From an uncultured Actinomycetes bacterium (GTDB lineage Bacteria; Actinomycetota; Thermoleophilia; Gaiellales; Gaiellaceae), in assembly GCA_963750595.1 (NCBI GenBank), contig CAVVRG010000007.1, positions 84,182 to 148,181 on the forward strand: a stretch of DNA of 64,000 bases, given 5' to 3'. The first letter of the stretch is position 1; each line of letters opens with the position of its first letter. Under the pieces are notes generated by a model. It was not told the DNA's origin and did no database searches. It saw only the letters and a program-made list of their open reading frames with translations. The position numbers were made by a program, and so were the translations under genes. Of this stretch, positions 3,315 to 48,743 are shown one piece after another.

Positions 3315-3719
3315 GTGACCCCGGACGAGGTTCGTGCCCTGCCGCTCTTCGAGGGGCTGAGCCCAGCGGGGCTCGAACGTGTCGCTGCGCACACGGCCGA
3401 GCTCATCTGCGAGCCCGGTCAGATCCTCGCGCTGCCGGGCGATCCCGGATCGGGAATGTACGTCGTCCTCGACGGGACGGTAAGCGTCGAGATGCGGGGC
3501 GGATGGCACACGGAGCTCGGCCGCGGGAACTTCTTCGGCGAGATCGCGCTCCTCGTCCCCGAGTCCGGCCGCGTCGCGCGGGTACGCGCAGCGACGCACG
3601 TCCGCTGCCTGAGCCTCCCACGCGACGACTTCATGGTCCTCGTCGAGAGCGAGCCCTCGTTCGCGCTCAAGATGCTCCACGAGCTCGCGAGGCGTCTGAG
3701 CAACTACGCGGCGGACTGA
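3315..3719 (+). CDS. stand-alone cyclic-nucleotide-binding domain protein
   Basis: cNMP-binding signature 'FFGEIALL…RVARVRAAT'; 134 aa with no attached output domain. Confidence 0.8.
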   Translation: MTPDEVRALPLFEGLSPAGLERVAAHTAELICEPGQILALPGDPGSGMYVVLDGTVSVEMRGGWHTELGRGNFFGEIALLVPESGRVARVRAATHVRCLSLPRDDFMVLVESEPSFALKMLHELARRLSNYAAD

Positions 3720-3734
3720 TGTTGTGCGCAGTAC

Positions 3735-3799
3735 GGGGAATCCGCGGGAGCGGATCCCCCATACGCGCGAAGACCCCTGAAGGCGGCCGCTTCGTGGCC
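3735..3799 (+). repeat. dispersed element copy A: hairpin1 - GCGCGAAGACCCCTGAAGG - hairpin2
   Basis: GGGGAATCCGC-GGGA-GCGGATCCCC stem-loop, conserved core at 3765-3783, then a GGCCGC-TTC-GTGGCC stem-loop. Lies directly 3' of the cNMP gene. Confidence 0.7.
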
Positions 3800-3878
3800 T
3801 GATCGCACCTTCACCAAGCGGAGAGGTCCACGAGGGCGACGGCCGCTTCATGGCCTGGTTGCTCCGTACACTCGATCC

Positions 3879-4343
3879 ATGGCCACCTCGACCGGAACGA
3901 AGCTGATCGCCGAGAACCGCCGCGCCCGGCGGGACTACGAGCTGCTCGAGCGCGTCGAGGCGGGCCTCGTACTGTCCGGGAGCGAGGTGAAGTCCGCGCG
4001 CGACGGGAAGGTGCAGCTCGGACAGGCATACGCGGACATCCGTGACGGCGAGGCGTGGCTCGTCGGCGCGTCCATCGCCGAGTATGCGCAGCGCGGTGCT
4101 TTCGGTCACGAGCCGGACCGCGACCGGAAGCTCCTCCTGCATCGTGGGGAGATCGACTCGCTGTACGGGAAAGTGCGTGAGAAGGGCCTGACGCTCGTCC
4201 CGACGCGGATGTACTTCAAGGACGGCCGCGTGAAGGTCGAGCTCGCGCTCGCCAAGGGCCGTGAGCGGGCCGACAAGCGCAGGGTCATCGCCGAGCGCGA
4301 CGCCCAGCGGCAGATCGAGCGGGCCCTCAAGCGCCGCCGTTGA
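3879..4343 (+). CDS. smpB: SsrA-binding protein SmpB
   Basis: Full-length match to the SmpB pattern: 'NRRARRDYELLERVEAGLVLSGSEVKS…KLLLHRGEI…GLTLVPTRMYFKDGRVKVELALAKG'. Confidence 0.95.
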   Translation: MATSTGTKLIAENRRARRDYELLERVEAGLVLSGSEVKSARDGKVQLGQAYADIRDGEAWLVGASIAEYAQRGAFGHEPDRDRKLLLHRGEIDSLYGKVREKGLTLVPTRMYFKDGRVKVELALAKGRERADKRRVIAERDAQRQIERALKRRR

Positions 4344-4371
4344 CCGGCCGGCCCGGCTCGAAGCCAACGTA

Positions 4372-4440
4372 GCGGCCGCGAAGCGGCCGCCTTCAGGGGT
4401 CTTCGCGCGAGCTGGGATCCGCGGGAGCGGATCCCAGCTC
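4372..4440 (-). repeat. dispersed element copy B (core inverted relative to copy A)
   Basis: GCGGCCGC-GAA-GCGGCCGC, then CTTCAGGGGTCTTCGCGC (reverse complement of the core), then a perfect 14-bp stem GAGCTGGGATCCGC-GGGA-GCGGATCCCAGCTC. Confidence 0.7.
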
Positions 4441-4490
4441 TGCGCATGACGTAGTACGCTCGCGGCTCACCCCTACGAGGAGAGGAGGGT

Positions 4491-4955
4491 GTGTTGCGAT
4501 CGGTGACGTTGACCGTGAACGGCACGCGCCACGAGCTCGACGTCGAGCCGCGCGAGCTTCTCGTGTACGTGCTCCGCGAGCGACTCCGGCTCACGGGCAC
4601 GAACGTCGGCTGCGACACGTCTTCGTGCGGGTCCTGCACCGTGCTCGTGAACGGCGAGTCGGTGAAGTCCTGCACGATGCTCGGCGTCCAGGCGGACGGG
4701 CTCGAGGTGACGACGATCGAAGGTCTCGCGACGAACGGCTCGCTCCACGCCGTCCAGCAGGCGTTCCACGACCAGCACGCGCTCCAGTGTGGCTTCTGCA
4801 CGCCGGGGATGGTGATGGCCGCAGTGAGCCTGATCGAGAGCGGTGAGGCAACCGACGAGGACACCATCCGCCTCGGCCTCGAGGGCAACCTCTGCCGCTG
4901 CACCGGGTACCACAACATCGTCCGGGCCGTCGCCTCTGCAGCGGGGGTGAGCTAG
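4491..4955 (+). CDS. (2Fe-2S)-binding small subunit of a CoxSLM/xanthine-dehydrogenase-family molybdoenzyme
   Basis: Both 2Fe-2S cysteine clusters are present: 'GCDTSSCGSCTV' and 'QCGFCTPG…CRCTGY'. GAGGAGAGGAGGG RBS lies before the GTG start. Confidence 0.9.
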   Translation: MLRSVTLTVNGTRHELDVEPRELLVYVLRERLRLTGTNVGCDTSSCGSCTVLVNGESVKSCTMLGVQADGLEVTTIEGLATNGSLHAVQQAFHDQHALQCGFCTPGMVMAAVSLIESGEATDEDTIRLGLEGNLCRCTGYHNIVRAVASAAGVS

Positions 4956-7310
4956 ATGGCCGTCGTCGAGTCGACCGAGAGCTACGTCGGCAGCTCCGTC
5001 CCGCGAAGGGAGGATGCATCGCTCCTGCGCGGCACGGGCACGTACATCGACAACCTCACGCTCCCCGGCACGGTCTACATGGCGGTCGTCCGCAGCCCCT
5101 ACCCGCGCGCACGCATCGTCGGCGTGAGTCTCGATGCGGCCAGGGCGGCCGAGGGCGTCGTCGCCGTGTTCAGCGGCGCCGACCTCGCCGACGACTGGGC
5201 CGGCTCGATGCCGTGCGCCTGGCCGGTGACCGAGGACATCAAGATGCCGCCGCACTTCCCGCTCGCCTCCGAGGAGTCCCGGTACCAGGGTGACGGCGTG
5301 GCCGTGGTCGTCGCGGAGAGCAGAGCGCTCGCGAAGGACGCGGCCGAGCTCGTGGAGGTGGAGTACGAGCAGCTCGACTCCGTGGCCGATGTGGCGGCCG
5401 CCCTCGAGGAGGGCGCGCCGCTCGTGCACACGGACCTGGGAACGAACGAGTGCTACGTCTGGAAGCTCGAGACCGACGACGTCCAGGCTGCGATCGACGC
5501 CGCCGACGTCGTCGTGACGCGACGCTACTACCAGCCACGCCTGATCCCGAACGCGATCGAGCCTCGGGGCGTTCTCGCCCAGCCCGGTCCCACGGGAGAC
5601 ATGACCCTGTGGACGTCCACGCAGGTCCCGCACATCCTGCGCTTCACGATGCAGCTCGTCCTCGGCATCCCCGAGTCGAAGATGCGCGTGATCGCGCCCG
5701 ACGTCGGTGGCGGCTTCGGGTCGAAGGTCGACGTCTACGCCGAGGAGTACCTCGCCGTCGCCCTCGCGAACCGGCTCGGACGGCCCGTGAAGTGGACGGA
5801 GGAGCGCGCCGAGGGGTACCAGGCGACGATCCACGGTCGCGACGTGCGGCACGACCTCACGCTCGCCGCGACGAAGGACGGCACGATCACGGCCGTCAAG
5901 TCCGAGGCGCTCTGCGCCATGGGCGCGTACCTCCAGCTCGTGACGCCCGGCATCCCGCTGCTCGGCGCGTGGCTGTACTCGGGCCCGTACGCGATCCCCA
6001 ACTATTCCGTGACGTTCACGGGCGTGTTCACGAGCACGACGCCGACGGACGCGTACCGCGGAGCCGGGAGGCCCGAGGCGACGTACGTCCTCGAGCGCAC
6101 GATGGACGCGCTCGCGGCGGAGCTCGGCATGGATCGCATCGAGCTCAGGCAAAAGAACTTCATCAAGGAGTTCCCGTACGCAATGGCATCGGGGCTCACG
6201 ATCGACTCCGGCGACTACGACGCGTCGCTCGAGCGCCTGCTCGAGCTCCTCGACCTGCCCGCCATCCAGGCGGACCAGGAGGAGCGCCGGGCGCGGAGCG
6301 ACGTGAAGCAGCTCGGCGTCGGCTTCTCGACGTACAACGAGATGTGCGGCCTCGCTCCGTCGAGGATCCTCGGGGCGATCCGCTACGCGGTCGGAGGCTG
6401 GGACAGCGCGACCATCCGGTTCCAGCCCCTGGGGTCCGTGCAGGTCGTGACCGGCACGTCGCCGCACGGCCAGGGCCACGAGACCGCGTGGTCGCAGATC
6501 GTCGCCGACGAGCTGGGCGTGCCCATCGACGACGTCGAGGTCCTGCACGGCGACACCGCCGTCTCGCAGCTCGGGATGGACACGTACGGGAGCCGCTCGC
6601 TGACCGTCGGCGGGATCGCGCTCTGGAACGCCGGCCAGAAGATCATCGAGAAGGCGCGGTCGATCGTCGCGCACCAGCTCGAGGTCTCGGAGGCCGACCT
6701 CGACTTCGCGGACGGGACGTTCACCGTGAAGGGGTCGCCGGACCGGAGCATGGGCATCAAGGACGTCGCCTTCCAGGCGCACTCCGCGCACAACCTCCCG
6801 GACGACATGGAGCCGGGGCTGGAGGCGACGGCCGTGTTCGACCCGCCGAACTTCTCGTGGCCGGGTGGCGCGCACGCCGCCGTCGTGGAGGTGGACACGG
6901 AGACCGGAGATACCCGGCTCGTGCGTTACGTCGCCGTCGACGACGTCGGCAATCCCGTCAACCCGATGATCGTCGACGGGCAGGTGCACGGAGGGATCAC
7001 CCAGGGGATCGCCGCGGCGCTCTACGAGGAGGGCGCGTACGACTCCGAGGGCAACCTCATGACGACGACCATGACCACGTACCTCGTCCCGTCGGCGGCC
7101 GAGGTCCCGTCCTACGAGACGGACCGGACGCTCACGGAGGCGGACAACCCGCTCGGAGTCAAGGGCGTGGGGGAGACCGGCACGATCGCCGCCGCCCCTG
7201 CGGTCATCAACGCCGTCGTCGACGCGCTCTCGCACGTCGGTGTCACCGACGTCCAGATGCCGGCGACGCCGGAGCGAGTGTGGAACGCGATCCAGGAGGC
7301 GACGTCATGA
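4956..7310 (+). CDS. molybdopterin-binding large subunit, form-II CoxL-like (AYRGAGR active-site loop)
   Basis: 784 aa. '[19 protein letters not shown]' is present; the form-I CO-dehydrogenase motif VAYRCSFR is absent. Confidence 0.9.
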
Positions 7311-8152
7311 TCCCCGCGCCGTTCGACTACGAGGTCGCCGAGAGCACCGAGCACGCGATTCAGCTCCTCGGGGAGCGGGAGGACGCGAAGCTCCTCGCCG
7401 GCGGGCACTCGCTCCTGCCGGCGATGAAGCTCCGCATCGCGCGCCCGGCGTGCCTGATCGACATCGGGGGGCTCGAGGAGCTCGACTACGTGCGTGACGA
7501 CGGCGACCGGATCGCGATCGGGGCGGTCACACGACACAAGGACGTCCGCGATGCCCCGCTTCTCCAGGAGCACTGCCCGATCGTCTCCTTCACCGCCGGC
7601 CAGGTCGGAGACCCACAGGTACGGCATCGCGGGACGATCGGTGGCTCGATCTCGCACAGCGACCCGGCCTCGGACCTCCCGACCGTGCTCTTCGCCATCG
7701 ACGCGGACATGGTCGTCCGAGGCGCAGGCGGCGAGCGGACGATCCCCGCGCTCGACTTCTGCACCGGCGTCTTCCAGACGGCGCTCGAGGAGGGAGAGAT
7801 GCTGGTGGAGATCCGCGTGCCCAAGCTCGCCCCCTCGACCGGCTGGTCGTACGTGAAGATGGCCCGGCGGGCGCAGGACTGGGCCACGGTCGGTGTGGCC
7901 GCGGTCGTGGAGCGCTCGAACGGAAGCATCTCCCGTGCGGCGATCGCGCTCACGAACATGGGCGCGACCGCGGTGCGGGCACGGGCCTCGGAGCAGGCGA
8001 TCGCGGACGGCGCCGGCATCGAGGAGGCGTCGAAGCTCGCCAGCGAAGGGCGGAACCCGCCGTCCGACCATGCCGCGAGCGCGGACTTCCGCAGGCATCT
8101 CGCGACCGTGCTGACACGGCGCGCGCTGGAGGACGCCTCCTCGGCGGGATAG
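7307..8152 (+). CDS. FAD-binding medium subunit (CoxM-like)
   Basis: 'LLAGGHSLLPAMKLR' FAD-binding motif. The ATG overlaps the coxL-like stop as ATGA. Confidence 0.9.
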   Translation: MIPAPFDYEVAESTEHAIQLLGEREDAKLLAGGHSLLPAMKLRIARPACLIDIGGLEELDYVRDDGDRIAIGAVTRHKDVRDAPLLQEHCPIVSFTAGQVGDPQVRHRGTIGGSISHSDPASDLPTVLFAIDADMVVRGAGGERTIPALDFCTGVFQTALEEGEMLVEIRVPKLAPSTGWSYVKMARRAQDWATVGVAAVVERSNGSISRAAIALTNMGATAVRARASEQAIADGAGIEEASKLASEGRNPPSDHAASADFRRHLATVLTRRALEDASSAG

Positions 8153-8216
8153 GCGATCCCGTGAGTCGAGACCGGGGCCGCCCGCTGCGGTGGTGCGGCT
8201 CCGGTCCTCCGCAAGA

Positions 8217-8282
8217 CCTCCGCTCGCTCACGCGAGCGGAGGTCGCGGACAACCCCTGAAGCGCGGACGCTCCGCGTCCGCG
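8217..8282 (+). repeat. dispersed element copy C
   Basis: CCTCCGCTCGC-TCAC-GCGAGCGGAGG, core TCGCGGACAACCCCTGAAG, then CGCGGACGC-TCC-GCGTCCGCG. Lies 3' of the coxM-like gene. Confidence 0.65.
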
Positions 8283-8323
8283 GCGGGCGAGGTTCGCCCG
8301 TGGGCCGCTCCACCCCTCCGGCG

Positions 8324-9361
8324 CTAGACGTACGTGAAGGTTGCGACCGGCACCGGCACGAGCGGAGCCGGCACCTGCTCGAGCGCCGTGGTGATGATCT
8401 CCTCGGCCGTGACGTCGTCCTGGAGGATCAGCCGGTGGCGGAGGACGTACGGGGCGACCTCCTGCACGTCGGCCGACGTCACGACCTCGCGCCCGCTCAG
8501 GCGTGCGTTCGCCTTGGCGGCACTCGCCAAGTGGATGATCCCGCGCGAGCTGACGCCGAGATCGACGCCCGGCAGCTCGCGGGTCTTCCGCGCGATCGCC
8601 ACCATGTAGCGTCCGACCTCCTCCGGAAGGTCGGTGCCGTCGAGCTCGACCCGGGCCTTGTCTAGGCCGACGACTCCGAGCAGCGGGCGCACCTCGCCGA
8701 GCATGTCCGGCGCGATGCCGCGGTGCGGAAGGTCGAGCATCGCGAACTCGCTGTCGGGGTCGGCGTAGTCGAGCTGGATCTTGAAGAGGAAGCGGTCGAG
8801 CTGCGACTCGGGGAGCTCGAAGACGTCGCGGTGCTCGAACGGGTTCTGCGTCGCGATGACGAGGAACGGGTCCGGAAGCTTGTGGCCCTTGCCCTCGACG
8901 GTGACCTGGCGCTCCTGCATCGCCTCGAGCAGGGCGGCCTGCGTGCGCGGGGGCGTGCGGTTGATCTCGTCCGCGAGGAGGACGTTGGTGAAGACGACGC
9001 CGGGCACGAACACCTTCTCGCCCGCGCGGATGACGTTGACGCCGGTCAGCTCGGCCGGGGTCGTGTCCGGCGTGAACTGGATCCGCTTGAACGTCGCGCC
9101 GAGCATGTGCGCGGTCGCGCGCGCAAGGAGGGTCTTCGCGCTTCCCGGCGGTCCCTCGAGGAGCACGTGTCCCCGCGCCAGTGCGGCGACGAGGAGCAGC
9201 TCGACCGCACGATCCTGGCCGAGGACGACCTTCGCGATCTCCGCCTTCGCGCGCTCGCGCAGGTCGGTGAGGTTCTCGTACGGCTCTTCCCAGATGATTG
9301 CCACGGTCCAGCCCCCTGTATCTGCGGTCCGGGCGATTCTAGCCCGTCCGGACGCGACCAT
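8324..9361 (-). CDS. MoxR-family AAA+ ATPase (CoxD-like), paralogue 1
   Basis: Walker A 'GPPGSAKTLLA', Walker B 'LLADEINR', and 'IATQNPFEH…LPESQLDRF'. Confidence 0.9.
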   Translation of the reverse strand: MVASGRARIARTADTGGWTVAIIWEEPYENLTDLRERAKAEIAKVVLGQDRAVELLLVAALARGHVLLEGPPGSAKTLLARATAHMLGATFKRIQFTPDTTPAELTGVNVIRAGEKVFVPGVVFTNVLLADEINRTPPRTQAALLEAMQERQVTVEGKGHKLPDPFLVIATQNPFEHRDVFELPESQLDRFLFKIQLDYADPDSEFAMLDLPHRGIAPDMLGEVRPLLGVVGLDKARVELDGTDLPEEVGRYMVAIARKTRELPGVDLGVSSRGIIHLASAAKANARLSGREVVTSADVQEVAPYVLRHRLILQDDVTAEEIITTALEQVPAPLVPVPVATFTYV

Positions 9362-9435: not shown

Positions 9436-10476
9436 TCAGGCGAGCTCGACGGCCGTCGGCGCCGCAGGCGCGACGGGCGTCGGCACCGAGCTCAGCGCGA
9501 GCTGGAGCACTTCGTCCGGCGTCGTCTCCGCGGTGACGACGAGGCGGTGCTTGAGCACGTACGGCGCCATCTCGCGGACGTCCTCGATCGTCACGAGCGA
9601 GCGTCCGTTCAGCCGCGCGTTGGCCTTCACGGCGTTGACGAGATGGATCATCGCCCGGGAGCTGACGCCGAGCTCGACGCCCGGGAGGTCGCGCGTACGC
9701 CGGCCGAGCGCGACGATGTAGCGCCCGACAGAGTCCGGGACCTCGGTGTGCTCGAGCTCCTGCCGCGCCTTGTCGAGGCCGACGACACCGAGCAGCGGCC
9801 GCACCTCGCCGAGCATGTCCGGCGCGATGCCCTTGTGGGGGAGGTTGAGCATCATGAGCTCGCTGTCGGCGTCCGCGTAGGTGAGCTCGATCTTGAACAG
9901 GAAGCGGTCGAGCTGGCCCTCCGGGAGCGGATACACGCCCTCGTGCTCGAACGGGTTCTGTGTCGCGATGACGAGGAAGGGGTCCGGGAGCTTGTGCGCC
10001 TTGCCGTCGACCGTGACCTGGCGCTCCTGCATCGGCTCGAACAGGGCAGCCTGGGTGCGCGGCATCGTGCGGTTGATCTCGTCCGCGAGGAGCACGTTCG
10101 TGAACACGGCGCCCGGCATGAACACGTGCTCGCCGGCGCGGATCGTGTTGACGCCGTTGAGCTCGCTCGGCGACGTGTCGGGCGTGAACTGGATGCGCTT
10201 GAAGGACGCGCCGAGCATGTGCGCGACGGCGCGCGCGATGAGCGTCTTCGCGCTGCCGGGAGGGCCTTCGATCAGCACGTGCCCGTGTGACACGGCGGCG
10301 ATGAGGAGCAGCTCGACGGTGCGGTCCTGGCCGATGACAACCTTTGAGACCTCACGCTTGGCCCGCTCTCGCAGGTCCGCGAGGTCGTCGTACTTCTCCT
10401 CCATCATCAGCGCCACAGGGATTGGTCCTTTCGCGGTAAGGGCTGGTTGTTCTTCCCGGTTCGTTCTCTTGGCCAT
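9436..10476 (-). CDS. MoxR-family AAA+ ATPase (CoxD-like), paralogue 2
   Basis: Collinear with 8324..9361: 'GPPGSAKTLIA', 'LLADEINR', 'IATQNPFEH'. Confidence 0.9.
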   Translation of the reverse strand: MAKRTNREEQPALTAKGPIPVALMMEEKYDDLADLRERAKREVSKVVIGQDRTVELLLIAAVSHGHVLIEGPPGSAKTLIARAVAHMLGASFKRIQFTPDTSPSELNGVNTIRAGEHVFMPGAVFTNVLLADEINRTMPRTQAALFEPMQERQVTVDGKAHKLPDPFLVIATQNPFEHEGVYPLPEGQLDRFLFKIELTYADADSELMMLNLPHKGIAPDMLGEVRPLLGVVGLDKARQELEHTEVPDSVGRYIVALGRRTRDLPGVELGVSSRAMIHLVNAVKANARLNGRSLVTIEDVREMAPYVLKHRLVVTAETTPDEVLQLALSSVPTPVAPAAPTAVELA

Positions 10477-10527: not shown

Positions 10528-10892
10528 GGGGGCGACCAGGTCTCGACGTGGTCGGTTCTCCGGCAGAGCTGCGAGCCGAGGTCGCCGGTTGGCCTCGTAA
10601 ATCCACCGGCACCAAAGCAAGTGCGAACAAGAACGAACTCGCACTCGCCGCCTAGCACTAGCTAGGTAAGGCGACGCCGACCCGGATTCGGCCCGAGATC
10701 CGGGAGCCGGCGCCAACGATCGGGCTCGGCGCCGAGGGAGAGCCAATCGCCCGGAGCGCGACTCTTCAGGATGGCTGGCCCGTCGGTTGGTCGTCCGCGA
10801 ACCGGCCGCCGGGCGAGATCAAGCGCGGACTACGCTCGTAGATGCCCTGTTCGGTGCGGCCGCGGACGCGGGTTCGATTCCCGCCGCCTCCA
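10528..10892 (+). ncRNA. ssrA: tmRNA (SsrA), tag ORF 10617-10655 encoding ASANKNELALAA*
   Basis: The 5' GGGGGCG pairs with the 3' CGCCUCC, including the G3.U pair. T-arm is GACGCGGGTTCGATTCCCGC with discriminator A. The tag ends in the typical ALAA followed by TAG. Confidence 0.9.
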
Positions 10893-10995
10893 TGAAATCG
10901 CGATTAGCAGGGAAAACGTTCCGAGACGGGGGGAATGGATTCGGAAGGGTCATTCCCTGTCGTCGTCCGCGGCGAAGGTCTGAAGCTGGGACGAC

Positions 10996-11330
10996 TCCAA
11001 GCTGAACGTCCCAGTCGGTGTAGGTGTCAGCGGTCGTGCTGATCGACGCATGCCCAAGAAGCGCCTGAACAGCCTTCAGGTTGCCGGTGGCGTCCAAAAC
11101 ACAGTGCCCGGCGGTGTATGTAGCGGGTGCGGTGCATCTTCGCTCCGGAGGTCTGGCCTGAGGCGACGAGACCGGCGTTCCTGGCATCGGTACGACCAGT
11201 CGCGGGCACCGTGAGCACCCAGGTGAGGCTTCTCGGGGAATCGGTCGAGCCTCACCTGCCGCCGTCCATGCTCGCCCGGACGGCCGAACGGGACCGTCCT
11301 CTGGCCGCATGACCATGCCCACTGCCGCTG
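10996..11330 (-). pseudogene. tyrosine-recombinase (phage-type integrase) C-terminal remnant
   Basis: 'LDATGNLKAVQALLGHASISTTADTYTDW' sits in one frame, and an 'MHRTRY…'-like H-x-x-R box piece in another. No intact ORF. Lies immediately 3' of ssrA. Confidence 0.6.
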
Positions 11331-11434
11331 AGATAACTCATTCAGCGGTTCGAGTGTCGCCAGCTTCACCGTCCCGCGCGCGACTGCGCCGGGCTCAATC
11401 GGACGAAGCCGCGCATCCAGCTTCTAGTGTCGGA

Positions 11435-12043
11435 TCAGCTGGCGGCTCGTGCCGACCAGATCAGCAGATCGAAGATCCGCACCTCGGTGAGGTCGTGGCC
11501 TCGTCTCACGAGCTCCCGCCGAGTCGCGCGCAGCGCCCTGCGATTGAGGTCGAGGTCGCGTTTGTAGCCGCGAACAAGCGCGATCGCGCGTTCTCCGAAC
11601 TGAGCGTCTGCTCCGAGGTCATCGACGGCCAGGTACGTCTGGACGACGCTGTCGAGCATGGGGACGAGCGCGGGGCGCTTCGGATGAAGAGCCTTCGTCA
11701 TCTTCGAGAGACCGATCCCGCGGATGTCTGCGAACGCGTCGAAAAGTTGCCTCAATGGCTGCCAGGGCACCAGCCCTTCTGTCCCGGCCAGCGAGGCACC
11801 GGAAGCAAGCGCCTGCAGCGCGAGTTCGATCGCCCGGCGGCGCTCGAGGGTGGCCGCGATTTCAGCCGCCGAAATGCGAGCGCCTCCGCGGTTCGCCAAC
11901 CTCAAGTCAGACTCATCGAACGAGGACGAGGCATCGCCGGCCTCGAAGCGCCATGACTCGAGGTATCCCCTCACGACCTGCAGGGGATCGTGGATCTCGA
12001 TCTCGTCCCGGAGGCTGACTGGCGTGGTCGATCTCGTCTTCAC
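11435..12043 (-). CDS. hypothetical protein with helix-hairpin-helix-like 'IRGIGLSKMTKALHPKRPALVPMLD' motif (resembles the DUF6308 type)
   Basis: 202-aa ORF with balanced composition. The overlapping + strand ORF 11309..11956 is Arg/Ala-rich and looks spurious. Confidence 0.55.
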   Translation of the reverse strand: MKTRSTTPVSLRDEIEIHDPLQVVRGYLESWRFEAGDASSSFDESDLRLANRGGARISAAEIAATLERRRAIELALQALASGASLAGTEGLVPWQPLRQLFDAFADIRGIGLSKMTKALHPKRPALVPMLDSVVQTYLAVDDLGADAQFGERAIALVRGYKRDLDLNRRALRATRRELVRRGHDLTEVRIFDLLIWSARAAS

Positions 12044-12117
12044 ACAGGCAGGCTAGGCGGGCCCAGGGGCGTGCGCGGAGAGAAGTCGACCTCTCTCCGA
12101 GCGCGAACGTCCTCTTT

Positions 12118-12324
12118 GTGGGGGGATGGGCGAGTGGCGTCGTGAAAACCGACGACGGCGGCCGGAGCTGGTCGAAGCTGCGTCTCGACACGCGTGACGT
12201 TGGGATCATCGAGATCGCTCCCACACGTCCACAGACCGTCTACGCGGGTGGTGGCGACGGCCTCCGGAAGAGCATGGACGGCGGCGCGACATGGCAGCGC
12301 CTGCCGCTTCGCCCGTACCGGTAG
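12118..12324 (+). pseudogene. BNR/Asp-box repeat protein fragment
   Basis: Two Asp-box repeats ('TDDGGRSW' and 'SMDGGATW') in a 68-aa orphan ORF. Confidence 0.4.
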
Positions 12325-12617
12325 CGGGCCCCGAAGCAGGCCCCGACCCGACGAACTCGTCCGCGGGGGTGGGGTGCCGTCGTACCTTCCCATTCCGCGT
12401 GCGTGCGCGCGAGAGGCTGTGGCGGGCACGCGCGAGTGAGGGGTCCCCGACCAGGCCCGCGCCTCGCATCACGGTCGCGCGGGCGGGGGTACCCTCACAC
12501 CTCTTCTATTTCTATCCGCGTGCGCGCGCGTGCGGCGCGAGGTGTGAGCGCGGAGACTCGGCGAGGCGCGCATGGCTAACACCGTGGCCTCCCCGCGGAA
12601 ACGGACGTCGCGGCCTG

Positions 12618-13220
12618 TCACGACGTGGCGGCCGGGACGACCGCGCTCATCACGCAGTTGCCCTTGCCCTTGGAGCGCTCGTAGCTGAACCCGAGCCGCT
12701 CGTACATGGTCCGGGTGGCGTTGTAGAGGAACGATGCCGAGGTCTTCTTGCCCTCGGGCAGGTCGTGCGGGTACGCCTCGACGAGGCCGCCTCCCGCCGC
12801 GGCGATCAGCGCCAGCGCACCCCGTACTGCGACCGCGGCCATTCCCGCGCGCCGGTATCCGCGGTCCACGAACAGGCACGTGATCCGGTAGTCCGGCATC
12901 CGGGCGACGCCCTGCTCCCACTCCTTGCGGTGGTGGATGTTCGGTAGCTCTGGGACCGTCCCGAACTGGGCCCAGGCGACCGCGACATCACCGTCGAATA
13001 CCAGCGCCGCGTGCGCACGGCCGGTCTCGACGAGACGCCGCTTGAACTCAGGGTGGCCGAGCGCTCTGCGCTCCTCATCGGAATCCGGGTGGCGGTGGAA
13101 GTACGTGCACCAGCAACCGCCCCACACACCGTTGTGCCGCTCGGCCAGATCCGCGAACGCATCCCACGTCCGCATGCTCAGGGGTTCGATCCGGTAGCCG
13201 TCCACCATGAGGGTGCCCAT
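12618..13220 (-). CDS. GNAT-family N-acetyltransferase
   Basis: Acetyl-CoA-binding segment 'RITCLFVDRGYRRAGMAAVAVRGAL'. Start chosen at MGTLMVDGY. Confidence 0.8.
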   Translation of the reverse strand: MGTLMVDGYRIEPLSMRTWDAFADLAERHNGVWGGCWCTYFHRHPDSDEERRALGHPEFKRRLVETGRAHAALVFDGDVAVAWAQFGTVPELPNIHHRKEWEQGVARMPDYRITCLFVDRGYRRAGMAAVAVRGALALIAAAGGGLVEAYPHDLPEGKKTSASFLYNATRTMYERLGFSYERSKGKGNCVMSAVVPAATS

Positions 13221-13438
13221 GCGCAAACGGTATCGGCTGGTTGACACCCCCGCCGCGTGGGTATGTGAGGCGCGGCAGGTGTGTGTTCAGAGGCTTCTCG
13301 TGCCATCTGAGGGCAACATGTGCCCGCCGCTTACGGGCCGGTAGCATTTGAACCCCCGGCGCGTTTTGGTCGGGGTCTCGCTCTTTGGAGGGCTCGCGAC
13401 TCTCGAGATCTGTCGACAGCGCGACGCCTTCAGCTCGT

Positions 13439-23396: not shown

Positions 23397-23586
23397 GGCG
23401 CATGAGCAACGCTCGCCTCCGGCTGGCGTTCGCGGGGGAGACCATGGTTCCCCAGGCTCTTTCGCGATCGGAGTGCGCGCGAGCGCACTTCGATCTTGCG
23501 AGAGGAACGCGCGTCCACTTCTTCCCGAGAGCGTTGCGGTTCCCCACGCCCCTCCCCGCTCATGCGCCACGGAGTGGCGCATGAGC
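23397..23586. repeat. ~170-bp hairpin-rich insert bounded by an 11-bp direct repeat GGCGCATGAGC
   Basis: GGCGCATGAGC occurs at 23397-23407 and 23576-23586. Its reverse complement at 23558-23568 forms an 11-bp stem around the DUF58 start codon. The interior carries palindromes GGGGAGACCATGGTTCCCC and AGTGCGC-GCGA-GCGCACT. Confidence 0.55.
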
Positions 23587-27231: not shown

Positions 27232-27252
27232 TCGACGCGGACGAGCCCTCGC

Positions 27253-27286
27253 GACGACCGCTCGCGTGAGCGAGCGGTCGTCTTTG
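27253..27286 (+). terminator. intrinsic terminator of the Bat-like operon
   Basis: 13-bp perfect stem GACGACCGCTCGC-GTGA-GCGAGCGGTCGTC followed by TTTG. Confidence 0.7.
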
Positions 27287-27346
27287 CGCAGGACAGGACG
27301 CGGGCGTGCGCGGCGCGTGAGCGGCGGCGCAGATCTCAGCGAACCG

Positions 27347-31859: not shown

Positions 31860-32362
31860 TGCCCCTCGACGTCCGAGAGACTCGCCTTCCCGGCGTGGGT
31901 TTCAAGTACGCCTTCCACCTCGCTCACGGTGGTCGGCTGTCCGTGATCCTGCACATGGACGGTCAGCGGGACATCTACTACTACCGGCGCGCAACGGACG
32001 ACGACCCGACGAGCGTCCTCGAGCTCCAGGACGACGAGGCTCGCCAACTGGGGGCGATCCTCGGCGGCGCGTACGAGCGCCCGAAGATCGTCGAGGAGCT
32101 CGAGATGGCGCTCGGCGAGCTCCAGATCGAGTGGATCCCGGTTCCCGACTCGAGCCCGGCGATCGGGCGCACGCTCGCCGAGTGCGGGTTGCGCGCGAGG
32201 ACGGGCGTGACCGTGATCGCGATCCTCCGCGAGCCGGAGCCGATCAGCGGCGCACAGCCGGAGGACGTGATCCAGCAAGGCGACACGCTGGTCGCGGTCG
32301 GGAAGGCCGGCCAGTTCGCCCAGTTCCGGAAGCTTCTCGCCGAGGGCCCGTACGACTCTTAG
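31859..32362 (+). CDS. TrkA-C/RCK_C regulatory subunit of the antiporter (KhtT-like)
   Basis: 'ETRLPGVGFKYAF…' N-terminal domain plus RCK_C 'IGRTLAECGLRARTGVTVIAILRE…GDTLVAVG'. Its start overlaps the antiporter stop. Confidence 0.8.
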   Translation: MPLDVRETRLPGVGFKYAFHLAHGGRLSVILHMDGQRDIYYYRRATDDDPTSVLELQDDEARQLGAILGGAYERPKIVEELEMALGELQIEWIPVPDSSPAIGRTLAECGLRARTGVTVIAILREPEPISGAQPEDVIQQGDTLVAVGKAGQFAQFRKLLAEGPYDS

Positions 32363-32370
32363 TCCGCAAG

Positions 32371-32437
32371 CATTCCCGGCTCGCTCGCGCGAGCCGGGAA
32401 TGCGGCAAGATCCCTGAAGGCGTCCGCTTCGCGGCCG
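32371..32437 (+). repeat. dispersed element copy D
   Basis: 14-bp stem CATTCCCGGCTCGC-TCGC-GCGAGCCGGGAATG, core CGGCAAGATCCCTGAAGG, then CGTCCGC-TTC-GCGGCCG. Confidence 0.7.
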
Positions 32438-32465
32438 CATGTGTGCCTCGAGCTCGATCGCCTGG

Positions 32466-32507
32466 GCCGGGAGTGCGGCAAGACCCCTGAAGCAGGGCCT
32501 TCGGGCT
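32466..32507 (+). repeat. dispersed element copy E (core plus UUCG hairpin only)
   Basis: CGGCAAGACCCCTGAAG followed by GGGCC-TTCG-GGCTC. Confidence 0.55.
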
Positions 32508-32977
32508 CACCAGAAGCCGTCGTGCACGGCCCACGCCTCGTCCTCGAAGTGCGGTCCGCTCACCGCCACGCTGCGCCCACCGCGGGAGAGGACGTCCCGG
32601 CACGAGAGCGCGAGCTTGCCACTGTCCTCGCCGATGCCCGCGAGCTCGCGGAACCGCTCGGCGCCGAGCGCGAACACGATCCGCCCGACTCCCGCCCAGT
32701 ACGCGGCCGACGTGCACATCGCGCACGGCTCGGTGCTTGCGTAGAGCGTGTACGCGCCGAGGTCCACGAGTCCGAGAGCGGCGCCCGCCGCACGCACGGC
32801 GTTCAGCTCCGCATGCCCCGTCCAGTCCGTGTCCGTCACGAGCGTGTTCTGCGCTTCCACGACCGACCCCTGCCCGTCGGCGAGAAGCGCGCCGAAGGGG
32901 TGGTTGCCGCGCTCGCGTGCGAGGCGCGCAAGCTCGAGCGTGCGCCGAAGCTGACGCTCGTCCTGAGGCGGGATCAC
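32507..32977 (-). CDS. CMP/dCMP-type zinc deaminase (nucleoside/guanine deaminase-like)
   Basis: 'HAELNAV' and 'PCAMC' zinc motifs. The GTG start overlaps the upstream stop as GTGA. Confidence 0.85.
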   Translation of the reverse strand: MIPPQDERQLRRTLELARLARERGNHPFGALLADGQGSVVEAQNTLVTDTDWTGHAELNAVRAAGAALGLVDLGAYTLYASTEPCAMCTSAAYWAGVGRIVFALGAERFRELAGIGEDSGKLALSCRDVLSRGGRSVAVSGPHFEDEAWAVHDGFW

Positions 32978-34720: not shown

Positions 34721-34772
34721 ACGCACGCCTGCTCGAACCGAGTCTGTCTCGACGCGCGACTGCGGCGCGACA

Positions 34773-34964
34773 GCGCCCGCGGAGCGGGCGCCTACAGGGA
34801 TCTTCGCGCTCGGTGCTCCGCGAGTGCGGAGCGCCGAGCTGCGGAAGAAAGAGCAAAGAAATGCACCGAGCCGGTGGCGCCTTCGTCCGGCTTTCCGACT
34901 GACCGCCGCCGAAACGGCTGCCGCTCGGAGAACCATCAACCTCGGACGCTCCGTACTCGGTGCA
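34773..34964 (-). ncRNA. structured RNA unit U1 (core 34862-34964 plus hairpins), probably the 5' leader of the MFS mRNA
   Basis: Closed by UGCACCGAG…CUCGGUGCA. Internal GCCGU-UUCG-GCGGC and GUCGG-AAAG-CCGGAC hairpins. Followed by 14-bp and 8-bp hairpins with no U tract before the MFS ATG. Confidence 0.5.
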
Positions 34965-34969
34965 TCCCC

Positions 34970-34999
34970 ACTCTATGCAGGCGGGGGGCTTGGGGTCAA
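34970..34999 (-). promoter_or_regulatory. predicted promoter of U1: TTGACC - 18 nt - TAGAGT
   Basis: The -10 ends 5 nt before the first base of the closing stem. The same layout is seen in U2 and U3. Confidence 0.5.
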
Positions 35000-35021
35000 G
35001 CACGCCGCGGAACGAACTTCG

Positions 35022-35032
35022 CGCAAATTGCG
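35022..35032. promoter_or_regulatory. palindrome CGCAA-A-TTGCG, 22 nt upstream of the U1 -35
   Basis: Conserved in sequence and spacing in all three units. Confidence 0.45.
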
Positions 35033-35041
35033 GAGGTTGAC

Positions 35042-35276
35042 AAAAGGCGACAGCGACGCGCTCCCGTCCTGTCGTATCGAGGCGGTCCCGACGCGCGACA
35101 GCAGGGGTCTTCGCGCTCGGTGCTCCGCATCCGCGGAGCACCGAGCTGCGGGGAGGAACGCGGAAAAGAAAATGCACCGAGCGGGTGACACCTTCGTCCA
35201 GTTTTCCGACTGACCGCCGCCGAAGCGACTGCCGCTCGGAGAAACCTTCAACCTCCGGTGCCCCATACTCGGTGCA
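35042..35276 (-). ncRNA. structured RNA unit U2 (core 35173-35276), candidate stand-alone sRNA
   Basis: Closing stem UGCACCGAG…CUCGGUGCA; GUCGC-UUCG-GCGGC and GUCGG-AAAA-CUGGAC; perfect 14-bp hairpin at 35115-35146. The final hairpin (35048-35074) is followed by a UUUU tract. Confidence 0.5.
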
Positions 35277-35282
35277 AGCCGC

Positions 35283-35311
35283 ACACTAGGGGCCCTCGCG
35301 GGGGGCGTCAA
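35283..35311 (-). promoter_or_regulatory. predicted promoter of U2: TTGACG - 17 nt - TAGTGT
   Basis: Same position relative to the closing stem as in U1 and U3. Confidence 0.5.
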
Positions 35312-35331
35312 GGCGCCCGAAAGTGAACATG

Positions 35332-35344
35332 TCGCAAATTGCGA
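35332..35344. promoter_or_regulatory. palindrome TCGCAA-A-TTGCGA upstream of the U2 promoter
   Basis: 6-bp arms, 21 nt from the -35. Confidence 0.45.
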
Positions 35345-35400
35345 AGTTTTCTTTTCGCACAGGGTCGAACTGCGCTATCCAGCGCGTGTTCTGGTGCTCG

Positions 35401-35548
35401 AAGAGAGAAAACGGCCGGGCGCGAGGGCCCGGCCGCAAGAGAATTCGCCGAGCCGGGAACGCTTTTGTCGACCTTCCCGACGAGCGTTCCGCTTCCGCGT
35501 AGTGCTCCTCGGGGGGCTTCGTCCTACCGGCGCCCCGTGCTCGGCGCA
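35401..35548 (-). ncRNA. structured RNA unit U3 (core 35446-35548) with canonical intrinsic terminator, candidate stand-alone sRNA
   Basis: The closing stem CGCCGAG…CUCGGCG carries a compensatory A-U to G-C change relative to U1 and U2. CGC-GGAA-GCG and GUCGG-GAAGG-UCGAC hairpins. The 9-bp GC hairpin at 35412-35435 is followed by UUUUCUCUCUU on the minus strand. Confidence 0.55.
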
Positions 35549-35553
35549 GCGGC

Positions 35554-35583
35554 ACTCTATGCACATAGGGCCACGTCCTTCAA
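35554..35583 (-). promoter_or_regulatory. predicted promoter of U3: TTGAAG - 18 nt - TAGAGT
   Basis: Same architecture as U1 and U2. Confidence 0.5.
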
Positions 35584-46681: not shown

Positions 46682-46786
46682 TCGCATGTCACGAGCCTGC
46701 GCGGAAGTCCGCATGTCTATGCGAGTCGCTTGTGAACGAGACGGAAGAGCTCGCTCGGTGCCTACCTCGGTATGTCCCCGCACTTG

Positions 46787-47068
46787 TTACGTCCTAACTG
46801 GGCGCGCACCTCGCCTGTCGGCAATGAAGCGGTAGATGGCAAGCAGGATGACCGCTCCGACAATCGCCGTGAGCCACGACGAGATGTCGAAGAACTCATC
46901 GAGCGGGTCAGCGCCGAAGAGGGCACCCGCTAGAAAGCCTCCGAGCAGCGCTCCGGCAACGCCGATGAGCGTCGTGACGATCCAGCCGCCCGGGTCATCG
47001 CCGGGCATCAGAGCTTTGGCAATGGCACCAGCGAGCAGGCCGAGAATGATGAACGCAATGATTCCCAT
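46787..47068 (-). CDS. GlsB/YeaQ/YmgE-family stress-response membrane protein
   Basis: 'MGIIAFIILGLLAGAIAKALMPGDDPGG…TLIGVAGALLGGFL'. Confidence 0.8.
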   Translation of the reverse strand: MGIIAFIILGLLAGAIAKALMPGDDPGGWIVTTLIGVAGALLGGFLAGALFGADPLDEFFDISSWLTAIVGAVILLAIYRFIADRRGARPVRT

Positions 47069-47229
47069 GGCTTCTCCCTTGTCGAGTCGTTCCACATCGT
47101 TCCCCTTGCAGGGGGCGACTCAAACCGGCGGATGGCTACCGACCCGCGCATGGACAGTTCGTCCAGGTACGCGTAAGGTCGAGTGCCCACGTCTGTGCGG
47201 AAGCGCTGGAATCAGATGTTGCAAACGGC

Positions 47230-47628
47230 ATGACCGACCGCGAGGACTTCCTGGCGTGGGTGAAGACGACGCTGTACGAAGCGGAGCTCGCGCTGCACAA
47301 CGGCGACGCGGCTCCACGCCGGGCACTCTGGTCGCGCAACGAGCCCGTGAGTGTCCTCGGCGCGTGGCGCAATGCCAGAGGGCAGGAGGAGCTGGACGAA
47401 CTCTTCGCTGCCCTCGGGAGGAGCTTCTCCGACTGCACGGCATACGCGTTCGAGCTGCACGCGTATGACGTGGTAGGCGACATGGCGTATACCGCCGGCC
47501 TCGAACACACGTCGGCCTCCGTCGACGGTCAGCCGCGCAGCTATACCTTGCGGGCCACGCAGGTGTACCGCCGGGAGGGTGGCGAGTGGAAGGTGGCCCA
47601 TCGCCATGGCGACACCGTAAGTGCCTGA
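47230..47628 (+). CDS. SnoaL/NTF2-like (DUF4440-type) protein
   Basis: 132 aa ending in '…MAYTAGLEHTSASVDGQPRSYTLRATQVYRREGGEWKVAHRHGD', typical of the NTF2-like fold. Confidence 0.7.
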   Translation: MTDREDFLAWVKTTLYEAELALHNGDAAPRRALWSRNEPVSVLGAWRNARGQEELDELFAALGRSFSDCTAYAFELHAYDVVGDMAYTAGLEHTSASVDGQPRSYTLRATQVYRREGGEWKVAHRHGDTVSA

Positions 47629-47871
47629 CGCAGCGCCGTGGTGTTCAGCGGCGACGTCGGAGCGCCGCACGTAGACCGTCCGCAGCCCCTCGATCTGCAC
47701 CACCGGAAGCCGACGCATGATCGCCTCAGCAGCCGCCCGAGTGACGCCGAGCTCTGAACGTAGGGCCTTCGCGTCGAGGAGCTCGGGCAGACGCTCGTTC
47801 AGCACGCGGTCGGTCACCATCAAGTGCCATAGTCCTGTGGTGACGACAAAGACCTTCAGCGTCTCGCTCAC
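47629..47871 (-). CDS. possible excisionase/MerR-like HTH protein (3' end uncertain; the ORF reads on antisense into the SnoaL-like gene)
   Basis: 'LLDAKALRSELGVTRAAAEAIMRRLPVVQIEGLRTVYVRRSDV' resembles Xis-type HTH proteins. Confidence 0.35.
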
Positions 47872-48216
47872 CTCGAGTGATCCGTCGCACGCGGTCGACC
47901 GCTTCTACAAGCTCCAGGCGGAGCGTGTTCCGCGGGTGGGCGAGGTCATCGAGATCGTTCGCTTCCTCCGTGGCCGCGTGATCCGCGCTCGTGTAACCCG
48001 CATCGACCCCTACACCGACCCGCCACAAATCGCGGCGACGCAGATCGAATAGCGCCGGGGCGCGGAGGAGCCGCTCGAGCTCCGCGTCGTGCTGCTTCGA
48101 CGGGCACGAGTGGCGGGTGCGCGAGGGGCTCGTTTGACCTCGGCCGACTGCGGGCTGTCGGGTGACGGACCGGTACGCCGGATTCGCAAGATCCGGCAAG
48201 TAGACTCCGGCAAAAG

Positions 48217-48483
48217 GTGACGACTCGAGAGGACATCGCCAGTGTCGCCGAGCAGTTAGCTGAGCTCACTCGCACGGTCGAGGCGATGGCGGAAGATCTC
48301 AAGGCGATGACCGAGCGCGCTGATCGCCAACAAGCGCGCGCCGACAGCCAGCAAGACCTCGTTGACCACCAGCAAGAGCGTGCGCAGTCGCAGCAAGAGC
48401 GCATTGACCTGGCTGCGCGAGAACTGGCCGACGTCAGTGATCGTCTGCAAGCCGCGGCGAACGCGCTTCGAGATTCGGTCTGA
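48217..48483 (+). CDS. small coiled-coil hypothetical protein (Gln-rich heptads)
   Basis: 88 aa with 'QQ…QQ…QQ…QQ' periodicity. No family recognised. Confidence 0.45.
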   Translation: MTTREDIASVAEQLAELTRTVEAMAEDLKAMTERADRQQARADSQQDLVDHQQERAQSQQERIDLAARELADVSDRLQAAANALRDSV

Positions 48484-48743
48484 CCGTCTCGGAAGTACCT
48501 ACGACGGCAATGAGCGCGGCTGCACGCACGCCTGCGATGCTCTCACGGCGCCTCTGCGCTCTACAGCAGCCTTCGCGGCGAGTCTTGCGACCTGCTCGAG
48601 TGACAACTCAGCACTGGCTACCGGGAATGCCGCGGAGTGCGCCGTCATACTGAGCCGATGATGCGTGTGGCAATCGCGCCGGCCGGCGCTCCTGCCCTGA
48701 TGCGGGCGGCCGAGACTGTGGCGCCGTCTCCGTCGGAGTAGGC

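Follow-up and report, generated by a model that had tools for sequence, protein, structure and literature searches.

A hairpin-box-hairpin repeat family dispersed between the genes of Gaiellaceae

Dispersed palindromic repeats are already known in bacteria. The closest described systems are the repetitive extragenic palindromes (REPs) and bacterial interspersed mosaic elements (BIMEs) of Enterobacteria and Pseudomonas, which include REPIN doublets and are mobilised by REP-associated tyrosine transposases (RAYTs). Nucleases of the HUH/Y1 type use substrates in which a hairpin adjoins a single-stranded recognition sequence; examples are RAYTs on REPs, TnpA on IS200/IS605 insertion sequences and relaxases at nic sites. 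Here we describe a repeat family of Gaiellaceae, which are among the most abundant soil actinobacteria, are nearly all uncultured and have noncoding DNA that is, to our knowledge, unstudied. It was noticed in a stretch of 64,000 nucleotides (the window; contig CAVVRG010000007.1, positions 84,182 to 148,181, assembly GCA_963750595.1) from an uncultured member of this family, in which a preliminary description had listed a composite element at positions 3735 to 3799 and at further sites. The repeat family is real, family-wide and undescribed. What is new is its design, its host lineage and the missing enzyme, the design being a clamp, a hairpin of free sequence, an invariant unpaired box and an exchangeable second hairpin.

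The element is like REPs and BIMEs in being a short, GC-rich extragenic palindrome of high copy number, found in both orientations, in tandem clusters and as a mosaic of modules, near stop codons and terminators, with its structure kept and with conservation across an entire bacterial family. It is unlike them in its 5' foot (GCGC-A(A/G)(G), not GTAG/GTGG), in having an 18-nt nonpalindromic unpaired box between hairpins whose stem sequence is free, in its actinobacterial host and in the lack of a RAYT homologue in the 1.3 Mb sampled. A different palindromic repeat, GTAGGGGC(C/G)...(G/C)GCCCCTAC, has the classical REP head GTAG; it lies in the smpB flanks of five loci (L134, L152, L162, L163 and L176), is common in soil Gaiellaceae contigs and is absent from the window. 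With the IS200/IS605-derived palindrome-associated transposable elements (PATEs) and with HUH substrates such as nic sites, our element shares subterminal hairpins without terminal inverted repeats or an obvious duplication, a hairpin beside a conserved single-stranded sequence, and strand-asymmetric features. However, its two hairpins are dissimilar save for a CCGC/GCGG top, there is no fixed 5' target of 4 to 5 nt (the flank is T-rich, A-poor and TAG-enriched), no TnpA/Y1 was seen in the sampled loci, and orientation in the window has no link to replication direction (GC skew is positive throughout, with 4 copies on the plus and 5 on the minus strand). Pneumococcal BOX, Neisseria Correia and enterobacterial repetitive intergenic consensus (ERIC) sequences are likewise modular, cotranscribed hairpin repeats that may affect mRNA processing or stability, but Correia elements have terminal inverted repeats and a TA duplication, BOX and ERIC are conserved in sequence throughout, and none has the hairpin-box-hairpin design. 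Integron attC sites, which are recognised as a folded single strand, are similar in that short conserved boxes clamp a structure-kept variable hairpin with extrahelical bases (in our element, the AAG bulge). In contrast to them, the element lies outside cassette arrays with no intI nearby, has boxes unrelated to R''/R' and is scattered in both orientations between housekeeping genes. We dropped readings as a ribozyme, riboswitch or attC site, there being no model match and no cassette context. Finally, the element lacks the terminal inverted repeats of miniature inverted-repeat transposable elements (MITEs). Thus, it works like a REP or a MITE but is filed as neither: a GTAG head is lacking, the sampled loci gave no RAYT, and there are neither terminal inverted repeats nor a clear target-site duplication.

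The element is about 75 to 90 nt long and follows the plan GCGC-AAG-[perfect hairpin of 13 to 14 bp]-C-GCGC(G/C)AAGAYCCCTGAAG-[GC hairpin with a TTC loop]. The starting GCGC pairs with the GCGC immediately 3' of the first hairpin, and we call this pairing the clamp. The conserved unpaired box between the hairpins, GAAGAYCCCTGAAG, is preceded by GCGC and is near-invariant. In RNAfold predictions a helix flanks GAAGAYCCCUGAA on each side and these bases stay unpaired (z from -3.8 to -7.3), and the hairpins are GC-rich, with fold energies of -44 to -57 kcal/mol. A composite of stem-loop, single-stranded core and stem-loop had been proposed at the outset; both the matches to a covariance model built for the family (R1) and the fold agree with it. 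To quantify the pairing, we used an alignment of 99 sequences with the clamp, a 13-bp stem and the second hairpin as the specified structure. We found 86.9% of cells paired versus 75.2% in shuffled alignments and 289 double-change cells versus 82, a number equalled in 0 of 500 shuffles, while sliding the structure out of register dropped pairing to 31 to 56%. Single stem pairs had compensated changes in up to 49 of the 99 sequences. Column pair 11-72, which joins the base 5' of GCGC to the G/C past the 3' GCGC, covaries (UG 43, GC 13, CG 10), and the clamp is therefore longer by at least 1 pair. An alternative fold, pairing the core CGCGAAG with CTTCGCG in the second hairpin, was rejected: it leaves the G-to-C change of subfamilies b and c (below) uncompensated, and because the base 5' of GCGC compensates that change instead, the clamp extension is favoured.

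Parsed copy by copy, 67 of 128 first hairpins were perfect, with a modal stem of 13 to 14 bp and a loop of 4 nt that was GNRA on one or the other strand in 45%. Alignment columns give TTC as the loop of the second hairpin in about 75% of copies. The box A-Y-CCC-T-G-A-A-G (core positions A9 to G18) is conserved at 84 to 98% per position in 43 copies found independently of the pattern. Stem covariation, the per-copy parsing and this conservation together uphold the early observation that stems differ while the core is kept, and an unpaired conserved box within a real structured element does look like the recognition site that was suggested. Stem drift can be seen between two paralogues in the window, whose stems disagree at 3 positions, all compensated (8215-8244, GACCTCCGCTCGC/GCGAGCGGAGGTC, and 27250-27288, GACGACCGCTCGC/GCGAGCGGTCGTC); orthologous copies after tRNA-Tyr (L010, L037 and L080) also differ by compensated pairs. 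Stem symmetry can arise from selection for pairing or from quasipalindrome correction by template switching during replication. The compensated stems thus prove a hairpin-prone palindrome and do not necessarily imply RNA function, since template switching yields the same symmetry.

The repeat is far in excess of chance in the window. CCCTGAAG occurs 8 times versus 1.29 expected, with 0 of 100 shuffles reaching 8, and a 19-nt degenerate core with at most 3 mismatches occurs 6 times versus 0.16 expected. Three of the eight CCCTGAAG matches (29291, 57016 and 60629) are chance, because they have no hairpins and lie inside coding sequence. Run on the window with filters off, R1 returned six full copies (E 7e-19 to 5e-9, 45.2 to 88.1 bits) and three incomplete ones: one degenerate, one core with a weak hairpin fragment and one hairpin-only half. 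The 64 kb therefore hold 9 copies, fragments and half copy counted, and the density is about 1 per 7 to 15 kb.

We then looked at relatives with an exact scan for GCGSSAAGAYCCCTGAAG, taking one genome per species, which gave at least 119 loci. Among the matches listed, 107 of 119 loci came from 78 metagenome-assembled genomes (MAGs) assigned to Gaiellaceae, Gaiellales, Thermoleophilia or unclassified Actinomycetota, and all 107 of these Gaiellaceae-type loci had the same architecture; the other 12 belonged to other phyla and had no hairpins. Three subfamilies can be told apart. Subfamily a has GCGCGAAG... followed by GGCGGCCGC-TTC-GCGGCCGC; subfamily b has GGCGCAATCGG-hairpin-GCGCCAAG... followed by GGGTCGC-TTC-GCTCCC; and subfamily c shares the 5' part of b with another 3' module, CTGCGTGGGTCG..GGGGCTCGCTC. 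The modules also part company: core and second hairpin occur without the first hairpin (L026, L074, L039, L098 and window 32475) and, conversely, the first hairpin without the core (window 27250-27288). Tandem arrays were seen in L097, L110, L118 and L066. Five exact core matches in viral contigs were chance, with no covariance-model match, and the element is thus absent from viral contigs. Pfam searches of 20 neighbouring or element-flanked genes gave housekeeping domains only and no transposase, and the genes in the window and in the flanks of multicopy loci are ordinary enzymes and transporters. No copy matched Rfam 15 at the gathering threshold; at lax thresholds the best hits were noise (gyrA, 22 bits, and ROSE, 18 bits, each with a cutoff of 45). 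A search of the literature for the core sequence or for repeats of Gaiella or Thermoleophilia found nothing relevant. The element is thus an undescribed family specific to Gaiellaceae/Gaiellales (Thermoleophilia, Actinomycetota).

Orthologous sites show whether a copy is fixed at its gene. We compared 80 smpB loci (L120-L199) from a metagenome scan, with SmpB proteins of 74 to 97% identity, and found a model match near smpB in only about 14. Upstream copies were co-oriented with smpB in L152, L155, L162, L163, L164, L173 and L177 and opposite to it in L136/137 (a tandem pair), L167 and L169. The point of insertion also varies, with the element ahead of a conserved TACACT box (-10) in L162 and past that box, before the start codon, in L152. 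Sites were empty in L133, L142 (where stop and start overlap as TAGTG), L144 and L149. Comparison of L149 with L162 shows an insertion of about 85 nt, the empty site reading TGAgcgt-ccctacact and the filled one TGAgttgt[E]gtgct-ccctacact, with E for the element. In L120/121, whose SmpB is the closest to that of the window (97%), only deletion remnants of both window copies are left. The upstream remnant, GCCGCAG-CACGGAAT joined to CCCTGAAG, has lost 33 nt between a point inside the 5' arm and the core, and the downstream one keeps the core and second hairpin with the first hairpin gone. Occupancy varies likewise at the tandem RNA units described below (U RNAs), where the first copy in L116 has no element past its tail, and the second copy in L116 and both copies in L111 are filled. 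The element thus behaves as an insertion element with turnover and not as a conserved cis-regulator of smpB. The TACACT box itself lies 6 to 9 nt ahead of the smpB start codon in the window (3862-3881) and in most of the 80 loci, a position that suggests a leaderless smpB mRNA.

The preliminary description had read the element as a terminator or 3'-end module rather than a REP, and had named a lack of orientation bias relative to upstream genes as part of what would refute it. We placed 157 copies found by nhmmer against genes called by a codon-usage model trained on the same loci, which is crude and leaves starts uncertain. Convergent spacers held 40 copies, tandem antisense spacers 33, tandem sense spacers 30 and divergent spacers 22; 9 copies were inside called genes and 23 at a locus edge. 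Thus, about 94% lie outside called genes and all four context classes are occupied. With 30 sense versus 33 antisense copies in tandem spacers and 22 divergent ones, there is no orientation bias at protein genes. Together with the missing U-tract, these counts speak against the terminator or 3'-end module, as do the smpB loci, which vary in presence, orientation and insertion point and carry deletion remnants in the manner of REP/MITE-like insertions. Membership of a known REP or MITE family with its transposase was to count against the original reading as well; insertion-like behaviour was seen, and no associated transposase was found. Distances to genes are short. In convergent spacers the element starts a median of 7 nt after a co-oriented stop codon, and at least 10 copies occupy an entire co-directional spacer with less than 15 nt free per side, in either orientation. 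TAG stops are enriched beside the 5' end (22 TAG versus 12 TGA; TAG makes up 39% overall). We rejected CTAG at both ends as a target duplication: the TAG stops explain it, and co-occurrence was 6 observed versus about 4 expected under independence.

On these grounds we favour, with about even confidence, the reading that the element is a REP/BIME-like nonautonomous intergenic insertion family recognised as a folded single strand. The family, its structure, covariation and distribution, the insertion/deletion polymorphism and the lack of orientation bias at protein genes are observed; the single-strand recognition and the type of enzyme are inferred. A hairpin kept purely as structure beside a box kept as sequence suggests that what is recognised is a folded single strand. 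The unit would be recognised and copied in that form, with the hairpin as a binding handle and the adjoining box as the site of sequence-specific recognition or cleavage. New copies would land in short spacers by stop codons, tRNA 3' ends and terminator T-tracts; resident copies would persist and then decay through palindrome deletion; and effects on transcripts, such as 3'-end protection or processing, would be secondary.

An asymmetry between the strands bears on which of them folds. Stem mismatches on the GAAGAYCCCTGAAG strand comprise 35 A.C and 11 C.A versus 8 G.T/T.G, and 34 of the 35 A.C mismatches lie at positions 6 to 8 from the loop. On the complement, A.C and C.A become G.U/G.T wobbles, and in 103 of 144 copies the predicted fold of the complement is the more stable one, by a mean of 2.4 kcal/mol. 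The TTC loop reads GAA on the complement, which is the very stable DNA triloop of the d(GCGAAGC) type. Both the mismatch and the folding-energy asymmetry argue for folding of one strand in particular. Beside tRNAs and terminators, by contrast, the core strand is the sense one. Either recognition depends on a conserved mismatch, or copying and transcript life use different strands.

Several observations weigh against an insertion family. The L149/L162 pair shows no clear target-site duplication and is too diverged for certainty. We found no near-identical dispersed copies within one MAG, with 2 to 6 copies sampled per MAG, and the mean best within-MAG identity of nonadjacent copies was about 0.74, so no recent burst is evident. 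Copies in the same genome differ in compensated stems and share the core, which purifying selection for a host function would match. There are no terminal inverted repeats, the ends being GCGCAAG... and ...GCGGCCGC or other 3' modules. No RAYT was found with E. coli RayT as the query, by tblastn or phmmer, in the window and about 1.24 Mb of loci, which are a small part of each genome; the best tblastn E value was 1.3, and phmmer returned none at E of at most 10. Wobble pairs favour one strand, and it is the complement of that strand which is co-oriented with tRNAs. Finally, each of the 12 copies beside a tRNA has the orientation of that tRNA, which suits a role at the RNA level better than random insertion, and those at tRNA-Tyr and tRNA-Pro are kept across 4 to 5 species with compensatory changes.

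Together with the co-orientation at terminators and the conserved core, the last of these points keeps alive the main rival, which we think improbable: a 3' module acting at the RNA level, in which the transcript of the core strand is a trailer or processing module and dispersal is a mere route of spreading. Its helices would block 3' exonucleases, a clade-specific RNase or RNA-binding protein would bind or cut GAAGAYCCCUGAAG, and the 3' ends of tRNAs, small RNAs (sRNAs) and mRNAs would thereby be defined or stabilised. ARAGORN found 62 tRNAs on the loci, and 12 elements start 4 to 20 nt past a tRNA 3' end, all in the orientation of the tRNA, next to five tRNA types: tRNA-Tyr (5 species), tRNA-Pro (4 species), Leu, Arg and Ala. 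In two loci, L037 and L080, a copy is inside a tRNA-Tyr/tRNA-Thr spacer. One copy follows tRNA-Tyr within an array of about 30 tRNA genes in some 4 kb of a Gaiellaceae MAG contig (L081, 379-4315). The proposed link between orientation and the upstream neighbour therefore stands next to RNA genes, at the 12 tRNAs and the U RNA copies, and falls at protein genes. The flanks are also in keeping with an RNA-level role, since copies follow U RNAs and hairpin/T-tract terminators in sense, 18 versus 2. Among 83 copies, 18 have T-rich and none A-rich sequence in the 10 nt 5' of the element, and 2 have A-rich sequence in the 10 nt 3' of it; many 5' T-runs are canonical terminator hairpin tails (L062, L105, L115, L082, L106, L053, L028 and L064), and others are U RNA tails. 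Column pair 11-72 and the composition of the flank suggest that pairing of the flank with core GAAGA, and hence a longer clamp, may account for part of the T-richness.

Further support for the RNA-level module comes from the 7-nt median distance to co-oriented stops in convergent contexts, from resident copies with a conserved core and covarying stems, from a core that is predicted to be unpaired, and from first-hairpin loops of which 45% are GNRA on one or the other strand. However, copies at protein genes are half antisense (33 versus 30) and 22 are divergent, loop type does not significantly follow the transcribed strand (GNRA on top versus bottom, 7:2 in sense and 3:4 in antisense tandem spacers), and mismatches on the core strand are A.C, with G.U only on the complement. 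Moreover, the smpB site is mostly empty in relatives, occupied in either orientation elsewhere and decayed in the closest relatives, so the element is dispensable at a given gene.

The U RNAs deserve description in their own right. On the minus strand of the window, about 34855-35570, lie three tandem structured RNA units of about 110 nt: U1, U2 and a third, at about 35400-35570, that ends in a canonical terminator. Every unit combines a promoter of the TTGAC-17-TAGnnT type with an upstream palindrome (GCAATTTGCG), is closed by a helix of GCACCGAG...CUCGGUGC and has a tail rich in U. Other Gaiellaceae carry conserved units ahead of an orthologous major facilitator superfamily (MFS) transporter gene (L111, 5680-6110; L116, 2690-3020), and in L197 they precede smpB (about 2330-2470). 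They have no Rfam match and are likely an undescribed family of sRNAs or riboswitch-like RNAs.

A bolder form of both readings, which we put forward tentatively and consider rather doubtful, is that hairpin-GAAGAYCCCUGAAG-hairpin is the substrate of an undescribed protein specific to Gaiellales, either a novel single-strand nuclease or recombinase or an RNA-binding protein or RNase. In the first case, hairpin elements would be mobilised without RAYT or IS200-type enzymes; in the second, the box would be a family-wide tag on tRNA, sRNA and mRNA trailers.

A host site at the DNA level is possible but poorly supported, and we rate it lower than the readings above. Here, a cruciform or hairpin with a sequence tag would be read by a host protein, as a nucleoid-organising or gyrase/integration host factor (IHF)-type site such as those of BIMEs, or as an uptake signal of the type of the Neisseria DNA uptake sequence (DUS) or the Haemophilus uptake signal sequence (USS). 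DUS and USS also lie in terminator-like inverted repeats and are conserved family-wide. Placement at protein genes independent of orientation would fit, as would a short nonpalindromic tag conserved family-wide in hundreds of copies, fairly even spacing along the window and a second-hairpin loop that in about 75% of copies forms the stable GAA triloop on the complement. However, DUS and USS tags occur about once per kb and frequently within genes, whereas the tag of our element is essentially confined to the element, at a density of about 1 per 7 to 15 kb that is far below theirs, and the 3 stand-alone CCCTGAAG matches are chance. The element also behaves like an insertion of 85 nt, of which fragments and half copies exist.

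Least probable is that the copies are plain intrinsic terminators, possibly bidirectional, that share sequence by coincidence: such terminators are likewise very stable GC hairpins by gene ends (-44 to -57 kcal/mol here), and copies often fill convergent spacers near stop codons, but this reading is unlikely because no U-tract follows either hairpin on either strand (the first runs into CGCGCGAAGA, and past the second TTTT occurs in 0 of 83 copies, with 1 of 83 T-rich), many copies lie directly past a canonical hairpin and T-tract terminator and would be redundant, transcription must read through the copies in at least 10 tight co-directional spacers, in the L152 smpB leader between -10 box and start codon and in the tRNA-Tyr/tRNA-Thr spacers, and termination needs neither an 18-nt nonpalindromic, nonstructural box nor a GCGC-AAG clamp.

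The individual copies in the window are as follows. The first, E1, had been listed at 3735-3799, and here as elsewhere the listed coordinates need a small correction: the true start is about 9 nt farther upstream, at the conserved GCGC. E1 spans 3726-3801 on the plus strand (R1 span 3718-3804; 70.3 bits, E 8.9e-15), between the stop codon (3719) of a gene with a cyclic nucleotide monophosphate (cNMP)-binding domain by Pfam and smpB (3879). Its parts are the 5' GCGC (P1, 3726-3729), the first hairpin (P2, 3731-3764; arms GTACGGGGAATCCGC/GCGGATCCCCCATAC, loop GGGA), the core GCGCGAAGACCCCTGAAGG (3765-3783) and the second hairpin (3784-3801, CGGCCGC-TTC-GTGGCC). It reads tgttgt-GCGC-AG-GTACGGGGAATCCGC-GGGA-GCGGATCCCCCATAC-GCGCGAAGACCCCTGAAGG-CGGCCGC-TTC-GTGGCC, a plan that the other listed sites share. 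E2 (4372-4445, minus strand; R1 span 4369-4453; 88.1 bits, E 7.2e-19) is antisense to smpB and to a coxS-like gene, both on the plus strand, and folds at -55.2 kcal/mol (z -6.4); its second hairpin is at 4372-4389, the core (reverse complement) at 4390-4408, P2 at 4409-4441 and the P1 GCGC at 4442-4445. E3 (8209-8282, plus; R1 span 8201-8284; 58.8 bits; fold z -7.3) sits between convergent genes, with a coxM-like stop at 8152 and the end of a minus-strand gene at 8324. It consists of CCGCAAG (8209-8215), P2 (8215-8244), the core variant GCGGACAACCCCTGAAG (8245-8261) and the second hairpin (8262-8282). E4 (32364-32438, plus; R1 span 32356-32441; 75.0 bits) begins 2 nt past the TAG stop (32360-32362) of a gene with a TrkA_C domain by Pfam and has P2 at 32371-32402, the core CGGCAAGATCCCTGAAGG at 32403-32420 and a second hairpin with a T.C mismatch at 32421-32437. 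The fragment E5 (32475-32510, plus; R1 span 32450-32513; 20.5 bits, E 0.0027), 37 nt past E4, is the core GCGGCAAGACCCCTGAAG with a weak hairpin and no first hairpin.

Directly past the U-rich tail of U1 lies E6 (34773-34844, minus; R1 span 34770-34852; 68.7 bits), with the second hairpin at 34773-34791, the core (reverse complement, CCCTGTAG variant) at 34792-34809 and P2 at 34810-34838. E7, past U2 (35079-35151, minus; R1 span 35079-35159; 45.2 bits), has P2 and the 5' half of the core intact, a mutated 3' core end (CCCTGCTG) and a degenerate second hairpin. A degenerate copy suspected within 23440-23520 was confirmed at 23432-23509 on the minus strand (35.6 bits, E 8.8e-7), with P1/P2 intact (GATCGAAGTGCGC/GCGCACTCCGATC), an eroded core and a different second hairpin. 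R1 also found a half copy absent from the earlier list (27250-27288, minus; 25.4 bits, E 2e-4, model positions 10-47), which is P1 and P2 alone, CGCAAAGAC-hairpin-GTCGCG, with no core. Of the copies listed earlier, the six full ones, the degenerate one (23432-23509) and the fragment (32450-32513) are members, and a supposed partial copy at 58887-58926 is not. The latter is a solitary GC hairpin, GGCGGCCGCTTCGCGGCAGCCGCC (58888-58911; 12.8 bits, E 0.16), that lies between convergent genes and has a likeness to the second hairpin alone. Orientation follows the upstream gene or RNA in 5 of 8 window copies, the exceptions being 4372-4445, 23432-23509 and 27250-27288. Lone hairpins like the second hairpin, without a core, occur at 3843-3857 (GGCCGCTTCATGGCC) as well as at 58888-58911, which suggests that this part of the element can stand apart as a module or is a terminator-like hairpin of a common kind.

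The window has about 71% G+C and includes smpB (3879-4343), the transfer-messenger RNA (tmRNA) gene (10528-10895) and one tRNA-Met. A 7-nt complementarity between the core and the window tmRNA is absent from the L197 tmRNA and was set aside as chance. E2 and E3 bracket an operon for a coxS/coxL/coxM-type dehydrogenase (2Fe-2S, molybdopterin and FAD; 4503-8152). Two adjacent paralogous genes of 326 codons each lie on the minus strand at 8324-9304 and 9436-10416, with 76% identity over 300 nt. Two stretches of lower GC (0.65 to 0.68), at 10900-13300 and 46700-48700, directly follow the tmRNA gene and tRNA-Met, respectively, and their open reading frames at 11309-11956, 12618-13220 and 46836-47468 have no Pfam match. 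These stretches may be elements integrated at classical tmRNA/tRNA attachment sites.

For the annotation of Gaiellaceae, a covariance model is now ready for what may be hundreds of sites per genome, as extrapolated from the window density, that would otherwise be mistaken for terminators, sRNAs or small open reading frames. The family is a clean example of a hairpin conserved as structure only next to a single-stranded box conserved as sequence, and this design gives the search for the enzyme or binding protein a tangible starting point in a lineage where RAYT is unseen. Should that protein bind RNA or be an RNase, the element would count not as junk but as a 3' module that has been domesticated and is actively maintained. 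If the co-orientation with tRNAs and terminators reflects function, it would bear on how transcripts are finished and protected in high-GC actinobacteria.

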